Assembly: GCA_963720545.1 (NCBI GenBank)
Contig: OY970399.1
Coordinates: 2,438,908-2,502,907, forward strand
DNA: 64,000 nt
DNA from: an uncultured Acidobacteriota bacterium
GTDB lineage: Bacteria; Acidobacteriota; Vicinamibacteria; Fen-336
Reading direction: 5' to 3'
Shown here: in pieces, positions 1-8,571 of the stretch
How positions within the stretch are numbered: the stretch's first letter is position 1
How the letters are laid out: each line of letters starts with the position of its first letter
Program-made: the position numbers and the translations under genes
The notes under the pieces: generated by a model
Databases searched by the model: none
Told to the model about the DNA's origin: nothing
What the model saw: the letters and a program-made list of their open reading frames with translations, nothing else

Positions 1-564
1 AGCCGCATCGCGGCGCGGAAGGCGCCGGCTGCGGCGAGCGGCCTGCCGTGGCGCGCGATCCTGGTGCCGGTCGCCGCCGCCGCCGTGCTCGCAGCCTGGC
101 TGGTGGTGCCGCCGCTCGTGCGGCGCGTGCAGCAGCCCGAGTTCGCGGCAACGCCGGCGCCGGCGGCGCAGCCCCGGCAGATCGTGCTCTCGGCAGATTC
201 CATGGAGCGGCTCGAGCGCAACCTCAGCCGCGAGCACGCGGCGCGGTACCTGAGCGAGGCCCAGGACCTGCTCGTGACCGTGGCCGAGACGCTGCCGCGC
301 TGCACGCGCAAGGGCCACGTGGACGTTGGCGACGAGGCGGCGCGCAGCCGCGCGCTGCTGCGCAGCCGCGCCTTCCTCGTCGACGACTCCGAGGCGCTCG
401 CGAGCGTGCGTCCGGTGCTCGACGACGTGGACAACTTGCTGCGCGAGGTGGCGGCGCTCGACCCGTGCGCGCGCCGCTCGCAGATCGAGTCGATCAGCGC
501 CGCGCTCACCAGCCGGCGGCTGCTGATGAAGATGGACCTCATGGCCCGCGAGCTCGACGGATGA
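1..564 (+). CDS. membrane-anchored hypothetical protein, C-terminal fragment (one TM helix then a helical domain; possibly anti-sigma-factor-like). The gene starts upstream of the window.
   Basis: Frame 1 is open from nt 1 to the stop at 562-564. It contains the hydrophobic helix ILVPVAAAAVLAAWLVVPPLV followed by a soluble domain. GC3 is high. Its stop overlaps the next start (ATGA). Confidence 0.5.
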   Translation, partial: SRIAARKAPAAASGLPWRAILVPVAAAAVLAAWLVVPPLVRRVQQPEFAATPAPAAQPRQIVLSADSMERLERNLSREHAARYLSEAQDLLVTVAETLPRCTRKGHVDVGDEAARSRALLRSRAFLVDDSEALASVRPVLDDVDNLLREVAALDPCARRSQIESISAALTSRRLLMKMDLMARELDG

Positions 565-1397
565 CGATGCAAGCCCTGCGCCGCGCGCTCGCGGCCTTCT
601 GCGTCGCAGCCTGCGTGGCAACCGTCTTGTCGCGCCCGGCCGTGGCCCAGGGTGGCGATGCCGCGACTGCCGCGAAGGCCCTGTACTTCGACCGCAAGTA
701 CGATGCCGCGCGCCAGGCATGGAGCGCGGTTGCCCGCGGCACCGGCAGCGAAGGCATCACCGCGCTCTACTGGGTCGCGCAGTGCAGCGAAAAGCTGGGT
801 GACGACGAGCGCGCGCTCGGCGAGTACCTCAAGTACATCCAGAAGCGGCCGGCAGGACAGCTCTCGGAAGACGCGCGCACCAGCCGGGTGCGCATCGCGA
901 CGCGGCTGGTGAAAGCCGGCAAGGAACAGCACATGGCGCTGCTCACCCAGGGCCTTGCCGATTCCAACCGCACGGTGCGCTACTACTCGGCGCTGCAGAT
1001 GTGCAGCCTCGGCGCGCCGAAAGGCAGCCCGGCAATCGGCGCGCTGCAGGCGCTGGTGCGCGACGAGCGCGATTCCGACCTCGTGGAGCGCGCCCAGCTG
1101 TGCCTGGTGAAGCTTGGTGCTGCGAGCCAGGCGCGCAGCAGCGCGCCGCAGGGCGAAGCCGGCCGCTGGTTCCGCGTCGAGGTGGTGCGCGCCGGCAAGA
1201 AGGAGGTTTCGGTGAGCATGCCGCTCGGGCTCGCCGACCTGGTGCTGAAGAGCCTGCCCGAGGACGCGCTCGTCGAACTGCGCAAGAAGGGATTCAACAC
1301 CGAGAACTTCATGGGCAATCTCAAGAACTATTCCGGCGGCCCGCTCGTCGACATCGTGGGCGATGACGGCGAACGGATTCGCATCTGGATCGAATAG
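561..1397 (+). CDS. secreted TPR/HEAT-repeat protein with a conserved C-terminal domain ending in RIWIE
   Basis: ATG at 561 overlaps the upstream stop. Signal peptide MTMQALRRALAAFCVAACVATVLSRPAVAQG. TPR-like and HEAT-like repeats (DSNRTVRYYSALQMCSLG...). The C-terminal roughly 80 aa are homologous to the next gene. Confidence 0.7.
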   Translation: MTMQALRRALAAFCVAACVATVLSRPAVAQGGDAATAAKALYFDRKYDAARQAWSAVARGTGSEGITALYWVAQCSEKLGDDERALGEYLKYIQKRPAGQLSEDARTSRVRIATRLVKAGKEQHMALLTQGLADSNRTVRYYSALQMCSLGAPKGSPAIGALQALVRDERDSDLVERAQLCLVKLGAASQARSSAPQGEAGRWFRVEVVRAGKKEVSVSMPLGLADLVLKSLPEDALVELRKKGFNTENFMGNLKNYSGGPLVDIVGDDGERIRIWIE

Positions 1398-1401
1398 GAG
1401 A

Positions 1402-1869
1402 ATGAAGATGATGAACGGCAAGAGTGGAATTTCATGGGCTATCGCCGCCACGCTGGCAATCGGCGTGGGCGCTGCGATCGCGTTCGCGGCCGACGACGAT
1501 CTCGACGTGGTGAAGAAGGCGGTCGCGTCCAACGCGGCGCAGGCGAGCGCGGCACCGTCGCAGTCCGCGGCGCCCGCAGCGCGCCCCGCCGCCAAGGCCA
1601 GGTCCGAGGCACAGTGGTTCAAGGTGCGCGTCAGCGAGCGCGAGAACAACCGGAAGGTGACGATCAACCTGCCGCTCAGCCTGGTGCGCGCGCTCGGCGA
1701 CGAGCTGCCGATCGATATCGGTTGCGACCACGACCGCGACCATGACCGCGGGCGCCGCCTGCTGCCATGCGGCATCAGCCTCGCGAAGGTGCTCGCCGAA
1801 CTCGATGCCGGGCAGAGCCTCGTCGAAATCGACAGCGACGAAGAGACCGTCCGCGTCTGGATCGAGTAA
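1402..1869 (+). CDS. secreted hypothetical protein; its C-terminal domain is paralogous to the previous gene and ends in VRVWIE
   Basis: AGGAG RBS at about 1396-1400 and ATG at 1402. Signal peptide, then an Ala/Ser/Gln-rich linker. The C-terminus WFKVRVSE...VTINLPLSLVRAL...VRVWIE aligns with WFRVEVVR...VSVSMPLGLADLV...IRIWIE of the previous gene. Confidence 0.7.
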   Translation: MKMMNGKSGISWAIAATLAIGVGAAIAFAADDDLDVVKKAVASNAAQASAAPSQSAAPAARPAAKARSEAQWFKVRVSERENNRKVTINLPLSLVRALGDELPIDIGCDHDRDHDRGRRLLPCGISLAKVLAELDAGQSLVEIDSDEETVRVWIE

Positions 1870-1998
1870 GGGGCGCCAGGCAGCCGTTGTCCTGAACGGG
1901 CGACGGTGCCGGGGCCGCACCATCCTCGTAAGTCATTGATCCATAAGGCGGCGATCTGGAACGCCGCTTGCACATAACCAGGGCAGGAGGACTCTCCC

Positions 1999-2391
1999 GT
2001 GATGCTTCGAAAAGCAGCCCTTGTTCTTGCAGCGGCGGCCGCGCTCACTCTCCCCATCGCTGCCGAGGCCGGTGACCGCTATTCGCGCGGTCGCGGCCAC
2101 GGCGACCGGGGCTACTCGCGCGGTTACCACTCGAGCTACAACTACCGCTACCGCGCCCCCGCCTACCGCAGCTATGCGCCACGCTATTACCCGCGCTACT
2201 ACCCGCGTTACTACGCGCCGGCCCGGGCGTACTACGCGCCGCCGCCGGTTTACTACGGGGGCTATTACGACAGCGGCTACTACGACAGCGGCTACTACCC
2301 CGGCTATTACCGCGAGCCGGCCGTAGCCCTTCACTATCACTCGGGCCGGGCGTGCAGCCGGTTCCACGTGGGCCTCAACTTCCGCTTCTGA
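1999..2391 (+). CDS. secreted Tyr/Arg-rich low-complexity tandem-repeat protein
   Basis: GAGGA RBS and a signal peptide MMLRKAALVLAAAAALTLPIAAEA. Mature region has YYPRYYPRYY and GYYDSGYYDSGYY repeats. Underlying 12-15 nt DNA direct repeats fall at roughly 2170-2300. Confidence 0.55.
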   Translation: MMLRKAALVLAAAAALTLPIAAEAGDRYSRGRGHGDRGYSRGYHSSYNYRYRAPAYRSYAPRYYPRYYPRYYAPARAYYAPPPVYYGGYYDSGYYDSGYYPGYYREPAVALHYHSGRACSRFHVGLNFRF

Positions 2392-2421
2392 CGCGCTCCG
2401 CGGCTGCGCGCGCCGCCTGTG

Positions 2422-3354
2422 TCAGGCGCGCGCGGCGAAGTAGCCGAGCTTGTGGCGGACCACCAGGTCCTCGCGGCTCGCCACGCGCAGCACGATCCGT
2501 CGCCAGCGCCCGTCCTTGCGGGCGTTGGATGAGACATAGCCGACGCTGTACTGGGTGCGCAGTTCCTCGGCGATGCGGTCGTAGACGGCATCGAGTTCCG
2601 AGATCGAGCCGGGGAAGTGAACCTGGCCGCCGGTGTCGCGCGACAGCGCCGTCAGCAGGTAGGCGGCTTGCGAAAAGTTGGCCGACTCGCGCTGCTGCCG
2701 CTGACGGATGCTGATCGCGTAGATCGCGATTTCGGTGCGCCGCGCCAGTTCCAGCACCTGGTCGTCGGTGACGATCGAGCAGGTGTCCTCGCCGTCCGAG
2801 AGCAGCACGATGGCGCGCCGCCGCAGCTCGCCCGCCTTCTTCTGCTTCGACAACTCCTTGAGCGCGACGTAGAGGGCGTTGTGCAGCGCCGTCGCGCCCG
2901 CGGCGAGCGTGCGCTTCACCGCGGACTCGAGCTGCTCCTGGTTCTCGGTGAAGTCCTGCAGGATCACCGGCCGGTCGTTGAACTGGATGATCTGCGCGAG
3001 GTCCTGCTGGCGCAGCGTCTTGACGAAACGGATGGCGGCCGACTGCGCCTGCTTCAGCTTGTCGTCCATCGACGCCGAGGTGTCGATGAGCAGCGACAAC
3101 GAAATCGGCAGGTTTTCGTGGGTGAACAGCGAAATCGACTGGCGGATGCCGTCCTCGTACGCGACGAAGTCGTCCTGGACGAGGTCGGTGACGAAGCGGC
3201 CGCGGCCGTCGGTCACCGAGACGGTCAGGTTGATGAGGTCGATGCCGGTCTCGAACGTCGGCGTCTGCGCCTGGCCAGCGGCGAACAGCGGCCGCGCGAA
3301 CGGCGCGGCGAGCGCCGCGGCCAGGAACGAGCGGCGGCGCAGCGAAGGTTTCAG
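2422..3354 (-). CDS. VWA (von Willebrand factor type A) domain secreted protein; start codon uncertain
   Basis: VWA domain with MIDAS-like motif LLIDTSASM. N-terminus reads LRRRSFLAAALAAPFARPLFAAG (Tat/Sec-like). No ATG, GTG or TTG lies in frame near the N-terminus. The only candidate is CTG at 3354-3352, which overlaps the upstream stop. Confidence 0.7.
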   Translation of the reverse strand: MKPSLRRRSFLAAALAAPFARPLFAAGQAQTPTFETGIDLINLTVSVTDGRGRFVTDLVQDDFVAYEDGIRQSISLFTHENLPISLSLLIDTSASMDDKLKQAQSAAIRFVKTLRQQDLAQIIQFNDRPVILQDFTENQEQLESAVKRTLAAGATALHNALYVALKELSKQKKAGELRRRAIVLLSDGEDTCSIVTDDQVLELARRTEIAIYAISIRQRQQRESANFSQAAYLLTALSRDTGGQVHFPGSISELDAVYDRIAEELRTQYSVGYVSSNARKDGRWRRIVLRVASREDLVVRHKLGYFAARA

Positions 3355-4226
3355 CGCACCGCTCCCAGCACCCGCGCCCGCGCGCCAGGCTGCGCGATCG
3401 TCACCAGCAGCTTGCGCTTCTCGGCATCGCCGGATTCGCTGTAGGTGAGCCGGTAGTGGGCGTTCAGGTCCGCCGCCACCTTGTTGAGGTTGAACTCCAT
3501 GCCCATCGCCGTCATCAGCCGCAGCTGCATGCCGCCGCTCTTGTCGGTGAGGTTCGCGAGCGCGTACTGCAGGTTGAAGGGCACGTCGCCGCCCTCGTTG
3601 ATCTCGAGCACGTAGAAGATGTCGGCTTTGCCCAGCGACTCGTCGACCGCCTGCTCCTTGGTGCGGCTCGAGAAGTCGATGCCGGAGCCGGTGATCACCA
3701 CCACCGCGGTGCGCGCCGCTTCCTTCTTCGCGAGCTCCTTCGTCACCTCGACGATCCCGTCGAGGAGCGTGTTGCCGCCCTGCGGGTAAACGCGCCGCAA
3801 CGCGGCGGTCGCCGCCGCGGGGTCGTCGCTCCATTCCACGCGCCGCGTCGGCCGGTCGCCGGTGGTCCACAGCATGTAGCGCGAGCCTTCCGGCAGCGAG
3901 CGCAGGAACGGCGCTATCGCCGGCACGATGTTGAGCCGGTATGCGCTGCTCAGAGCCTCGCTGCTGTCGATGATGAGCGCCAGCGACAGCGGCCGGGTGT
4001 CGATCGCGAGGTCCACCACTTCGCGGGCGATGCCGTTCTCCTCGACCGCGAGGTCGGTGGTCGACACCGACTTCACCGCGGCGCCGTCCTTGTCGGTGAG
4101 CGCCACCGACACCACCCGGTCCGAGGCGGCGGCCGCGGCGGCCGCCGACGCGAAGAGGGTCATTCCGAGCGCGCCGTTTCGCCCAAGCGCCAGTATCATC
4201 CTTTTAATGGCCATGCCAATGCTCAT
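3351..4226 (-). CDS. VWA domain secreted protein (paralog of the downstream gene)
   Basis: VWA fold with MIDAS-like motif LIIDSSEAL. N-terminal hydrophobic signal. Sits in tandem with the second VWA gene. Confidence 0.75.
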   Translation of the reverse strand: MSIGMAIKRMILALGRNGALGMTLFASAAAAAAASDRVVSVALTDKDGAAVKSVSTTDLAVEENGIAREVVDLAIDTRPLSLALIIDSSEALSSAYRLNIVPAIAPFLRSLPEGSRYMLWTTGDRPTRRVEWSDDPAAATAALRRVYPQGGNTLLDGIVEVTKELAKKEAARTAVVVITGSGIDFSSRTKEQAVDESLGKADIFYVLEINEGGDVPFNLQYALANLTDKSGGMQLRLMTAMGMEFNLNKVAADLNAHYRLTYSESGDAEKRKLLVTIAQPGARARVLGAVR

Positions 4227-6526: not shown

Positions 6527-7761
6527 AACCGGAACGCTACATGTTTGCCGTGGTCGCCGTGGTCGCTGCCGTGATGATCGCCGCCGCCTGCGGCGCGCCC
6601 TCCGCGGCCGACCGCACCGCCGTCATGGCTGCGGCCGCGCTCTGCGGGTTCAACACACTCGTGGCGCATGGACTCACGGCCTGGGGAGCGCGCCGCTCCA
6701 ACAAGACGTTCTTCACCGCAGTGCTGGTCGGCACGCTCCTGCGCCTCGCGCTTGTGCTCGGGTTCGTGTACCTGGCGCTCGGCGTCTTCAACCTGCCGCG
6801 CACACCGTTCGTCGCCACGCTGCTTGGACTCTTCACCTTGTTCATGGTGGCGGAGCTGAAGGTGCAGGCAAACGCGCTGAAGCGCGCGGCCGCAGCCATC
6901 TTTTTCACGGGCGCGCTCGCGAGCACGCAGGCCTTCGCCCAGGAACCGGCCGCCGCACCGCACCAGGAAGCGGCGCCACACCAGGAAGCTGCCGAGCATG
7001 GTGGCGGCCACGACGATCCGGCCGCGATCCTCATGCACCACGTGACCGACCAGCCGATCTTCGGCTTCCGCTCCAAGCACCTGCTGTTCTTTGCCCTGGT
7101 CGCCGGTCTGGTGCTGATCGCGGCGCGCGTGGCGGTCTCGAACTACGACCACAAGAAGGTGCCCAAGGGTCCCGCGGCGCTAGTCGAGACCATCGTGTTG
7201 TTCATCCGCGACGAGATCGCCGAACGCAACATCGGCCACGGCGAGGGGACGCGCTGGACCCCCCTGCTCGCGAGCTTCTTCTTCTTTATTCTGACCGCCG
7301 CGTTCGTCGGCCTGCTGCCGTTTTCGGCGACCTCCACCGGCAACATCGCGGTCACGGCCGCGCTCGCCACGGTCTCGCTGCTCGCCCAGCAGTGGGGCGG
7401 CATCGCCAAGCACGGCGTCTTCGGCCATTTCAAGAACCTCATCCCACACGGCATGCCCTGGCCGATCACGATCATCATGGTGCCAATCGAGATCATCGGC
7501 GTGTTCACCAAGCCATTTGCGCTGATGATCCGGTTGTTCGCCAACATGATCGCCGGTCACATGGTGATCACCGCGCTGCTGCTGCTGATTCCGCTGATGG
7601 CGCGCATCAGCCTGGCGATGGGCCTGGTGACCTCGCCGGTCAGCATCGGCATCGCGCTCTTCATTATGGTGCTCGAGGTTCTTGTGGCGTTCATCCAGGC
7701 TTATATTTTCACCCTGCTCACGGCGATCTTCATCGGGATGTACGTTCATCCCTCACACTAG
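6523..7761 (+). CDS. atpB: F0F1 ATP synthase subunit a with a roughly 113-aa hydrophobic N-terminal extension (AtpI-like); alternative start at GTG 6862
   Basis: The C-terminal 290 aa match subunit a (RLFANMIAGHM, IFTLLTAIFIG). No stop separates the AtpI-like N-terminal region. An in-frame GTG at 6862 preceded by GGAG would give a signal-peptide-like start MQANALKRAAAAIFFTGALASTQAFA. A duplicated AAPHQEA motif follows. Confidence 0.85.
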   Translation: MKPERYMFAVVAVVAAVMIAAACGAPSAADRTAVMAAAALCGFNTLVAHGLTAWGARRSNKTFFTAVLVGTLLRLALVLGFVYLALGVFNLPRTPFVATLLGLFTLFMVAELKVQANALKRAAAAIFFTGALASTQAFAQEPAAAPHQEAAPHQEAAEHGGGHDDPAAILMHHVTDQPIFGFRSKHLLFFALVAGLVLIAARVAVSNYDHKKVPKGPAALVETIVLFIRDEIAERNIGHGEGTRWTPLLASFFFFILTAAFVGLLPFSATSTGNIAVTAALATVSLLAQQWGGIAKHGVFGHFKNLIPHGMPWPITIIMVPIEIIGVFTKPFALMIRLFANMIAGHMVITALLLLIPLMARISLAMGLVTSPVSIGIALFIMVLEVLVAFIQAYIFTLLTAIFIGMYVHPSH

Positions 7762-7788
7762 GCGCGATTTCAAGGAGGACTGAAGTTC

Positions 7789-8016
7789 ATGGATCCCAAA
7801 GGTCTTGCGTATCTCTCGGCGGGTATCGGCGCCGGTCTCGCGATCATAGGCGGCGGTCTCGGTATCGGCCGGCTGGCCGCGTCGGCCATGGAAGGAATCG
7901 CGCGCCAACCCGGCGCCACCGGCGACATTCGAGGCGCGATGATCGTTGCCGCCGGCCTCATCGAAGGCGTGACCTTCCTCGCTCTCATCGTTTCGATCCT
8001 GCTTGCGACCAAGTAG
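7789..8016 (+). CDS. atpE: F0F1 ATP synthase subunit c
   Basis: 75-aa hairpin protein with the conserved carboxylate in LIEGVTFLALIV. Confidence 0.9.
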   Translation: MDPKGLAYLSAGIGAGLAIIGGGLGIGRLAASAMEGIARQPGATGDIRGAMIVAAGLIEGVTFLALIVSILLATK

Positions 8017-8025
8017 GACCGCGCC

Positions 8026-8571
8026 ATGATGTCGGTGGTGTGGACCTTAGCCGCCGCGGCGGCGGAAGGCGGCGGCCAGGGTGGGTTGATGGACTTCAAC
8101 GTCACCCTGTTCTGGGCGACCCTCGTGCTATTCGCGCTGTTCGCGTTCATCCTCGGCAAGTTCGGGTGGAAGCCCCTGCTGGCCATGGTCGAGGAACGCG
8201 AGGGCTTCGTGCGCAATGCGGTCGACAGCGCGGAGAAGGCGAATGCCGAGGCGCATTCCCTGCTCGAGAAGCACAAGGAGATGCTGCGCCAGGCCGGCCG
8301 CGAGCGCGAGGAGATCCTGAAGCGCACGCTGCAGGACGCCGAGGCGCTCAAGGCCGACCTCGCCGCCAAGGCGCGCGCCGAAAGCGAGAGCATCGTCGCT
8401 CGCGCCCGCGAGCAGGTCGAGCGCGAGAAGAACCTCGCCATCCAGGAACTGCGCGGCCAGGTCGCCGACCTCGCCGTCGAAGCCGCGTCGCGGATCGTCA
8501 AGTCCTCGATGACCCCCGACGCCCAGCGCCAGCTGGTCTCGGACTTTGTCACCAACCTTCCAAAAAGCTAA
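8026..8571 (+). CDS. atpF: F0F1 ATP synthase subunit b
   Basis: N-terminal TM helix then a long charged coiled coil. Sits immediately after atpE. Confidence 0.85.
   Translation: MMSVVWTLAAAAAEGGGQGGLMDFNVTLFWATLVLFALFAFILGKFGWKPLLAMVEEREGFVRNAVDSAEKANAEAHSLLEKHKEMLRQAGREREEILKRTLQDAEALKADLAAKARAESESIVARAREQVEREKNLAIQELRGQVADLAVEAASRIVKSSMTPDAQRQLVSDFVTNLPKS

Follow-up and report, generated by a model that had tools for sequence, protein, structure and literature searches.

What do two neighbouring secreted proteins that end in the same unfamiliar domain do beside a membrane-anchored protein? The question is raised by the left end of a 64,000-nucleotide (nt) stretch of DNA from an uncultured Acidobacteriota bacterium of the class Vicinamibacteria (GenBank contig OY970399.1, positions 2,438,908 to 2,502,907 of the forward strand; hereafter the window). 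Reading of open reading frames (ORFs) places three tightly packed genes on the + strand at positions 1-1869: gene 1 enters across the window's left edge, gene 2 encodes a secreted protein of 278 amino acids (aa) and gene 3 encodes a small secreted protein. We find that these genes are the distal part of a five-gene operon that is conserved in Vicinamibacteria and probably autoregulated. The operon encodes an extracytoplasmic function (ECF) sigma factor, an anti-sigma factor and three further proteins, all of them predicted to be exported and each ending in the shared domain.

A shared C-terminal domain in adjacent secreted proteins

Gene 2 (561..1397, + strand) begins with a signal peptide (MTMQALRRALAAFCVAACVATVLSRPAVA, followed by Q; 561..647), for which sequence inspection places cleavage between AVA and Q, and ends in its copy of the domain (aa 202-278; 1164..1394). 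Gene 3 (1402..1869, + strand) likewise opens with a signal peptide, cleaved between AFA and A, and reaches its own copy (aa 71-155; 1612..1866) through the Ala/Ser/Gln linker that an initial annotation of this locus had described. That annotation had also proposed that the two adjacent proteins share a C-terminal domain of roughly 80 aa, a claim that our comparisons bear out. The C-termini align end to end in BLASTP (E=1e-5, 28% identity, 88 columns), and the similarity is recovered by profile methods, which the annotation had named as a check: hhalign of the gene 2 family against the gene 3 family domain alignments returns a probability of 98.4% and E=7.9e-15. The proposed motifs WF[RK]V.V, V.[VI][SN][ML]PL.L and R[IV]WIE before the stop codon are present in both proteins, as WFRVEV...VSVSMPLGL...RIRIWIE in gene 2 and WFKVRV...VTINLPLSL...VRVWIE in gene 3. 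The gene 2 copy scores 96.9 bits against the mixed profile A2, and these two copies are the only ones within the window.

The same ending runs through both protein families, whose members (102 gene 2 homologues and 165 gene 3 family matches) are nearly all labelled 'hypothetical'. Every one of 120 gene 3 family proteins closes with [KR][VI]W[VIL][ED] and a stop, and about 100 of the 102 gene 2 homologues end in W[ITLM]E or WTEE, so that the WIE terminus, whose conservation the annotation had marked for checking, is indeed a family feature.

The domain was described at the outset as unrecognised, and it remains so in every library that we searched, namely Pfam-A (2025), NCBIfam 20.0 (June 2026) and PDB. 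Pfam-A and NCBIfam gave no domain match for the window proteins, for 27 gene 3 homologues searched singly or for 10 relatives with tandem copies of the domain (described below), and isolated domains matched nothing in either library even at E up to 10. There was no credible match in the PDB profile search, nor in Foldseek against PDB (best E=0.5, TM-score <0.4). Foldseek against BFVD gave a best E of 9e-3, a weak score, and its matches were solely to uncharacterised, unnamed phage proteins. The domain is thus a new accessory family, with no Pfam (2025), NCBIfam (June 2026) or PDB match by sequence or fold.

Structure prediction, another check that had been suggested, gave a compact answer. AlphaFold2 models the gene 2 domain from a 25-sequence alignment as a beta-hairpin, three short helices and a second beta-hairpin, with a predicted local distance difference test (pLDDT) score of 83; the strands span domain residues 7-14, 17-25, 64-70 and 76-81, and the helices 26-35, 38-46 and 54-60. 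The model of full-length gene 3 has a matching topology, in which a loop bearing a Cys pair takes the place of the middle helix (pLDDT 70-80 inside the domain, 60 overall). The conserved positions comprise the hydrophobic core, a helix-capping Pro, a Gly, two Trp and alternating basic residues on strand 1, a pattern that suggests nothing catalytic. Judging from strand periodicity, an open face of the gene 3 sheet would carry W72, K74, R76, R151, W153 and E155.

We considered and rejected several identities for the domain. WD40 matches in the PDB profile search, to the designed propellers Tako8 and Ika, are an artefact of repeated 20-residue partial alignments on the last hairpin, 'vkvW'. A PepSY assignment was offered by NF051432 against gene 3 (E=2e-4) and by PepSY_TM in five homologues; both kinds of match fall on the signal peptide and Ala-rich linker, outside the domain, and we treat them as compositional. 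Identity with the SHOCT-like N-terminal domain of YvlB and LiaX did not survive inspection either, as PF22746 covers only a bihelical motif of ~30 residues that precedes the domain in some relatives, and six domain-only sequences found no match to the LiaX model NF038025 at E up to 10. Finally, W-x-E at the carboxy terminus could have been a C-terminal signal, whether a ligand for a PDZ protease or a TPR clamp or a sorting tag. Tandem-copy proteins have the motif in their interior or with a tail behind it, and its place is taken by VWL[RSKQ] in a lipoprotein family and by [FY][IV][ED] in cytoplasmic relatives, both introduced below; it marks the last beta-strand of the fold, not a terminal signal.

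Upstream of their domain copies, the two proteins differ. The TPR and HEAT repeats that the initial annotation assigned to gene 2 (669..1103) give sub-threshold matches in the window protein: TPR_16 (aa 37-98, E=7.4e-5) and HEAT_2 (aa 107-181, E=0.013) score 23.5 and 16.2 bits, below the respective gathering cut-offs of 32.7 and 27.7. Many homologues carry precomputed PF13432, PF13174 or PF13646 matches. Gene 3 probably starts at the ATG at 1408, 7 nt after a GGAG, rather than at 1402; a protein 96% identical to it (P0001) is annotated as 153 aa. Immediately after the signal peptide, all gene 3 relatives carry an acidic-amphipathic motif, DDLxVVKKAVA (aa 31-42 in gene 3, DDDLDVVKKAVA; 1492..1527). 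In an alignment of 108 sequences, D33, A40 and V41 are invariant and D32, L34, V37, K38 and K39 are at least 90% conserved; AlphaFold2 predicts a helix at residues 30-47, and the motif may be a docking peptide. The loop inserted into the gene 3 domain copy holds a nearly invariant Cys pair, C108 and C122 (window ~1723-1767), which is missing from the gene 2 copy and would be consistent with a periplasmic disulfide.

A conserved five-gene operon with an ECF sigma factor

To the left of gene 2 lies the 3' part of gene 1 (1..564, + strand; 187 codons), which encodes a linker, one transmembrane helix (WRAILVPVAAAAVLAAWLVVPPLV; 49..120, a hydrophobic stretch picked out by eye in the translation) and a helical periplasmic domain. 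Its N-terminal anti-sigma domain falls upstream of the window. The complete arrangement could be read on contig L001, which encodes gene 2 and gene 3 proteins 96% identical to those of the window, and in a scan of one genome per GTDB species that yielded 21 loci, all from Vicinamibacteria or Acidobacteriota metagenome-assembled genomes. Gene order was compared across L001 and the 19 GTDB Vicinamibacteria/Acidobacteriota loci that had enough flanking sequence.

The suspicion that gene 1 is an anti-sigma factor with an ECF sigma gene upstream proved well founded. The full-length orthologue on L001 (8348-9148, 266 aa) follows and overlaps by 4 nt (ATGA) a gene for an ECF sigma factor (7767-8351, 194 aa), and the corresponding position lies just upstream of the window. 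This sigma factor consists of regions 2 and 4 only (Sigma70_r2 E=2.5e-17, r4 E=2.5e-18) and scores 106.6 bits against TIGR02937 (cut-off 42.9). An anti-sigma gene sits directly 3' of the sigma gene in all 19 loci that hold the region. Class I anti-sigma factors of the ZAS (zinc-motif) type carry an N-terminal cytoplasmic H-x3-C-x2-C together with an upstream His or Cys ligand. The H-x3-C-x2-C motif is found in 20 of 20 gene 1 orthologues, with a conserved His ~27 residues upstream (in the part outside the window), and it is on these residues that we classify gene 1 as a predicted single-pass anti-sigma factor of the ZAS type. The zf-HC2 model (PF13490) was not matched: full-length L001 gene 1 matches no Pfam family at E up to 1, and a PDB sequence search with the full-length protein gave no match.

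Gene order is fixed across L001 and the 19 loci: lipoprotein, ECF sigma factor, anti-sigma factor (gene 1), gene 2, gene 3. In the loci scan, gene 2 is without exception preceded by the anti-sigma gene and followed by gene 3. Its start codon shares an ATGA with the end of the anti-sigma gene, and 4-10 nt separate its stop codon from the start of gene 3. In the window, the ATGA overlap that the initial annotation reported is there at 561-564, the TGA of gene 1 sitting within the ATGA that supplies the gene 2 ATG at 561. From it the annotation had proposed a three-gene envelope-associated operon; the three genes are co-arranged as it said, but the operon has five genes and opens with a lipoprotein that itself bears the domain. 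Three database 'proteins' fuse either the anti-sigma factor with gene 2 or gene 2 with gene 3 (P0313, P0321 and P0225). They are probably products of frameshifts or faulty gene calling in high-GC metagenome contigs rather than genuine fusions.

On L001 the lipoprotein gene (7321-7749, 142 aa) lies upstream of the sigma gene and encodes a lipobox, LVSSGC, and the ending VLVWMK. Its family closes with VWL[RSKQ], has a conserved N-terminal motif of its own (AF..AR.EA.R..GRPGPAH) and was detected in 18 of 19 loci; L011 retains a remnant. The lipoprotein carries a third, divergent copy of the domain: hhalign aligns its family with the gene 3 family at 95.2% probability (E=2.8e-8) and with profile A2 at 93.8% (E=1.8e-7), and the hidden Markov model matches are reciprocal.

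Upstream of the lipoprotein, at 48-74 nt 5' of its start, 13 of 15 loci share the motif GGAAC-N17-CGTT at fixed spacing; L001 has a CGTC variant (~7255-7285), and L008, L011 and L014 carry the motif as well. ECF-type promoters combine an AAC-containing -35 element with a CGT-containing -10 element. The conserved motif has this classic shape, which suggests autoregulation of the whole five-gene unit. Within window positions 1-2700, no sigma-70-like promoter or intrinsic terminator was predicted. We also considered further regulon members in the window and rejected them, since the 3 matches to GGAAC-N16-18-CGTT against 1.05 expected are at chance level and apparently lie inside coding sequence.

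A wider family of domain proteins

A profile search of 1.84 billion representative proteins found the domain far beyond this operon: 239 clusters matched at E up to 1e-10, and the looser threshold of 1e-3 gave 1400, some of which may be false WD40-type matches. The top 150 were all short proteins matched end to end. Three architectures recur: secreted proteins with a single copy, secreted proteins with tandem copies, and cytoplasmic proteins in which a SHOCT-like motif precedes the domain.

The tandem-copy proteins are ~180-215 aa long and hold two copies each. In 65 of 80 metagenome loci (L030-L109) they are encoded by adjacent gene pairs, hence four copies. No conserved neighbours of these pairs emerged from the 80 loci, where antisense ORFs in the high-GC DNA disturbed the clustering of ORFs. 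Many tandem-copy proteins bear a short polar tail after VRIWID.

The cytoplasmic relatives qualify the original view of this as a domain of secreted proteins, which is right for genes 2 and 3. They are ~115-140 aa long, lack a signal peptide and consist of a SHOCT-like motif (PF22746) followed by the domain, and their family matches those of gene 2 and gene 3 in hhalign at 98.9-99.0% probability (E=1e-17 to 1e-18). In all three contexts that we examined they sit in operons headed by a gene for a DUF2089 zinc-ribbon helix-turn-helix protein (L024 2549-6417; L026 4021-5387; L027 2504-5348), where other SHOCT-like proteins are also encoded; a DUF4097/Toastrack gene is present in two of the three (L024/L025 and L027/L028) and not in L026. 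One cytoplasmic relative, P0479, matches the LiaX model NF038025 over residues 1-126 (E=1.7e-5). This apparent link to LiaX stems only from the SHOCT-like motif, because domain-only sequences give no such match. DUF2089/Toastrack operons have been read as membrane- or envelope-stress signalling systems, and their SHOCT-like motifs have been proposed to be membrane-proximal (PMC11237479).

Genes downstream of the operon

Beyond gene 3 lies gene 4 (1999..2391, + strand), which encodes a 130-aa protein with a signal peptide. The protein is extremely rich in Tyr, Arg and Pro, has YYPRYY and GYYDSGYY repeats and matches no family. Its membership of the operon is uncertain: no terminator-like site was found between gene 3 and gene 4, and gene 4 is present on L001 and was weakly detected 3' of gene 3 in 3 of 21 loci. 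Two adjacent genes for von Willebrand factor A-domain proteins, annotated as PF00092/PF13519 on L001, converge on the operon from the - strand (window ~2422-4226).

Possible roles of the domain proteins

What, then, might three domain proteins do in one sigma factor operon? The answer that we favour, tentatively, is that the domain is a non-catalytic interaction and oligomerisation module and that, in the periplasm, the three paralogues make up an accessory or sensor complex whose target is the anti-sigma factor. Protein-protein contacts between the domains would bring together the lipoprotein, the TPR/HEAT scaffold of gene 2 and the small gene 3 protein; by engaging the periplasmic domain of the anti-sigma factor, the resulting complex would adjust the release of the sigma factor, in functional analogy to RseB/MucB or CnrX. 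We arrive at an adaptor and oligomerisation module because each locus holds several copies, because the genes are tightly spaced and overlap with the anti-sigma gene, and because the domain recurs beside membrane-linked transcription regulators. The tandem copies in adjacent gene pairs would also be consistent with mutual pairing of the domains. What the data establish is that the three copies are homologous and bear export signals, that the gene order and the promoter motif are conserved, and that the regulators are a sigma and an anti-sigma factor; that the proteins oligomerise, touch the anti-sigma factor and serve as regulators instead of output is what we infer, and four points weigh against it. 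Genes in one transcript with an ECF sigma factor frequently belong to its output and do not regulate it. A sigma factor lies near the tandem-copy gene pairs in only 2 of 80 loci, and the domain is therefore independent of sigma and anti-sigma partners. The periplasmic part of gene 1 has no recognisable family in Pfam or PDB and thus gives no pointer to a known docking surface. The fold model, moreover, was built on shallow alignments, as its scores reflect (pLDDT 83 for the gene 2 domain and 60 overall for gene 3).

The main alternative is that the three proteins are instead the output (the regulon) of the sigma factor, envelope-protective or structural proteins of the periplasm that would become abundant once the sigma factor is released. 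We think this somewhat less likely, although the proteins do share an operon and its putative autoregulated promoter, the tandem-copy relatives without a nearby sigma factor imply a function independent of regulators, and the chance-level occurrence of the promoter motif elsewhere in the window means that the operon itself may be a main target. Strict co-linearity and starts that overlap the anti-sigma gene in every genome suggest stoichiometric partners, however, and TPR/HEAT scaffolds and a lipoprotein are typical of sensor complexes. Output and regulation can also coexist in one protein, as they do in RseB and CpxP. In a third proposal, which strikes us as improbable, the partner of the domain is a ligand in the envelope (a glycan, lipid head groups or a lipopolysaccharide-like glycolipid) bound by the conserved, solvent-facing Trp and Arg/Lys side of strands 1 and 4, and the proteins are ligand sensors or carriers. 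It draws on the W-F-K-V-R-V / V-R-V-W-I-E alternation, whose strand pattern would put the six most conserved residues on one face, and on the cytoplasmic relatives, which are fused to the SHOCT-like motifs proposed to lie near the membrane. Yet Foldseek against PDB and BFVD revealed no likeness to any lipid- or glycan-binding fold that is known. In the cytoplasmic family, moreover, Glu stands in place of the strand-4 Arg and Phe or Tyr in place of the Trp, and the Trp/Arg face could equally be a dimer interface. Regulation, output and ligand binding are not mutually exclusive.

The possibility that the similarity is fortuitous or compositional, or that the ORFs are not real genes at all, deserves mention since high-GC DNA yields many long spurious ORFs and since the profile also catches WD40-like 'VKVW' strands in designed PDB proteins. 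It is refuted by hundreds of homologous proteins whose length, signal peptides and synteny are conserved, by profile-profile E-values of 1e-8 to 1e-18 and by a structure prediction that is confident and consistent for both copies.

Relation to known systems

In the SigmaE-RseA-RseB (AlgU-MucA-MucB) and CnrH-CnrY-CnrX systems, too, one probably autoregulated operon encodes an ECF sigma factor together with a single-pass anti-sigma factor and accessory proteins that are exported. The type of system is therefore already well known; what is new here is the five-gene architecture with three paralogous copies of one domain. The logic that we propose resembles that of RseB/MucB and CnrX, periplasmic partners that act on the outer domain of an anti-sigma factor, an interaction that would have its counterpart here. 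In sequence and fold, however, the shared-domain proteins have no similarity to RseB, MucB or CnrX. Three paralogous accessory proteins stand here in place of a single one, and the gene for one of the three, the lipoprotein, precedes the sigma gene. The anti-sigma factor, unlike RseA, has a ZAS zinc motif.

Another instructive comparison is with a four-gene system that comprises a sigma factor, a zf-HC2 anti-sigma factor with extracellular HEAT repeats, Toastrack and DUF2089 (PMC11237479; mSystems 2024, Text S2.4). Both systems pair a sigma factor with an H-x3-C-x2-C anti-sigma factor and place HEAT repeats on the outer side of the membrane, and the shared domain recurs in DUF2089/Toastrack operons. 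Here, however, the HEAT and TPR repeats reside on the separate secreted protein of gene 2 instead of being fused to the anti-sigma factor. The Vicinamibacteria operon has no Toastrack (DUF4097), DUF2089 or SHOCT-like gene, and on L001 neither DUF2089 nor DUF4097 is encoded within 10 kb. The same study lists, next to DUF2089 in Bacillus megaterium, a 'SHOCT-like+X' protein, BMQ_3692 (PMC11237479, Table S4). Our cytoplasmic relatives (~120-135 aa) have the SHOCT-like motif followed by the domain and occupy the equivalent operon position, and we infer that 'X' is the shared domain. Genes 2 and 3, by contrast, encode exported proteins without a SHOCT-like motif, whereas the SHOCT-like relatives lack a signal peptide and are presumably cytoplasmic.

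Implications

ECF sigma factors are among the main routes by which bacteria transduce signals, and Vicinamibacteria are an abundant class of soil bacteria. To our knowledge, most ECF groups from poorly cultured phyla have no known input mechanism. Against this background, the furthest-reaching interpretation of our results, which we regard as doubtful, is that the domain is a new fold and a widespread adaptor family for envelope signalling on both sides of the inner membrane, and that the operon encodes an undescribed sensor of three proteins, which spans the distance between lipoprotein and anti-sigma factor and governs an ECF sigma factor. If so, the domain would be used in the periplasm both in triplicate with an ECF sigma factor and ZAS anti-sigma factor pair and as tandem-copy gene pairs, and in the cytoplasm tethered by SHOCT-like motifs in DUF2089/Toastrack systems. 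The analysis defines a conserved, probably autoregulated ECF module of Vicinamibacteria, with a testable promoter motif, and identifies its three paralogous periplasmic partners as candidate sensors. The domain itself gains boundaries, a predicted topology, homology relations and a link to DUF2089/Toastrack operons, which justifies a Pfam-style family definition and structure determination.

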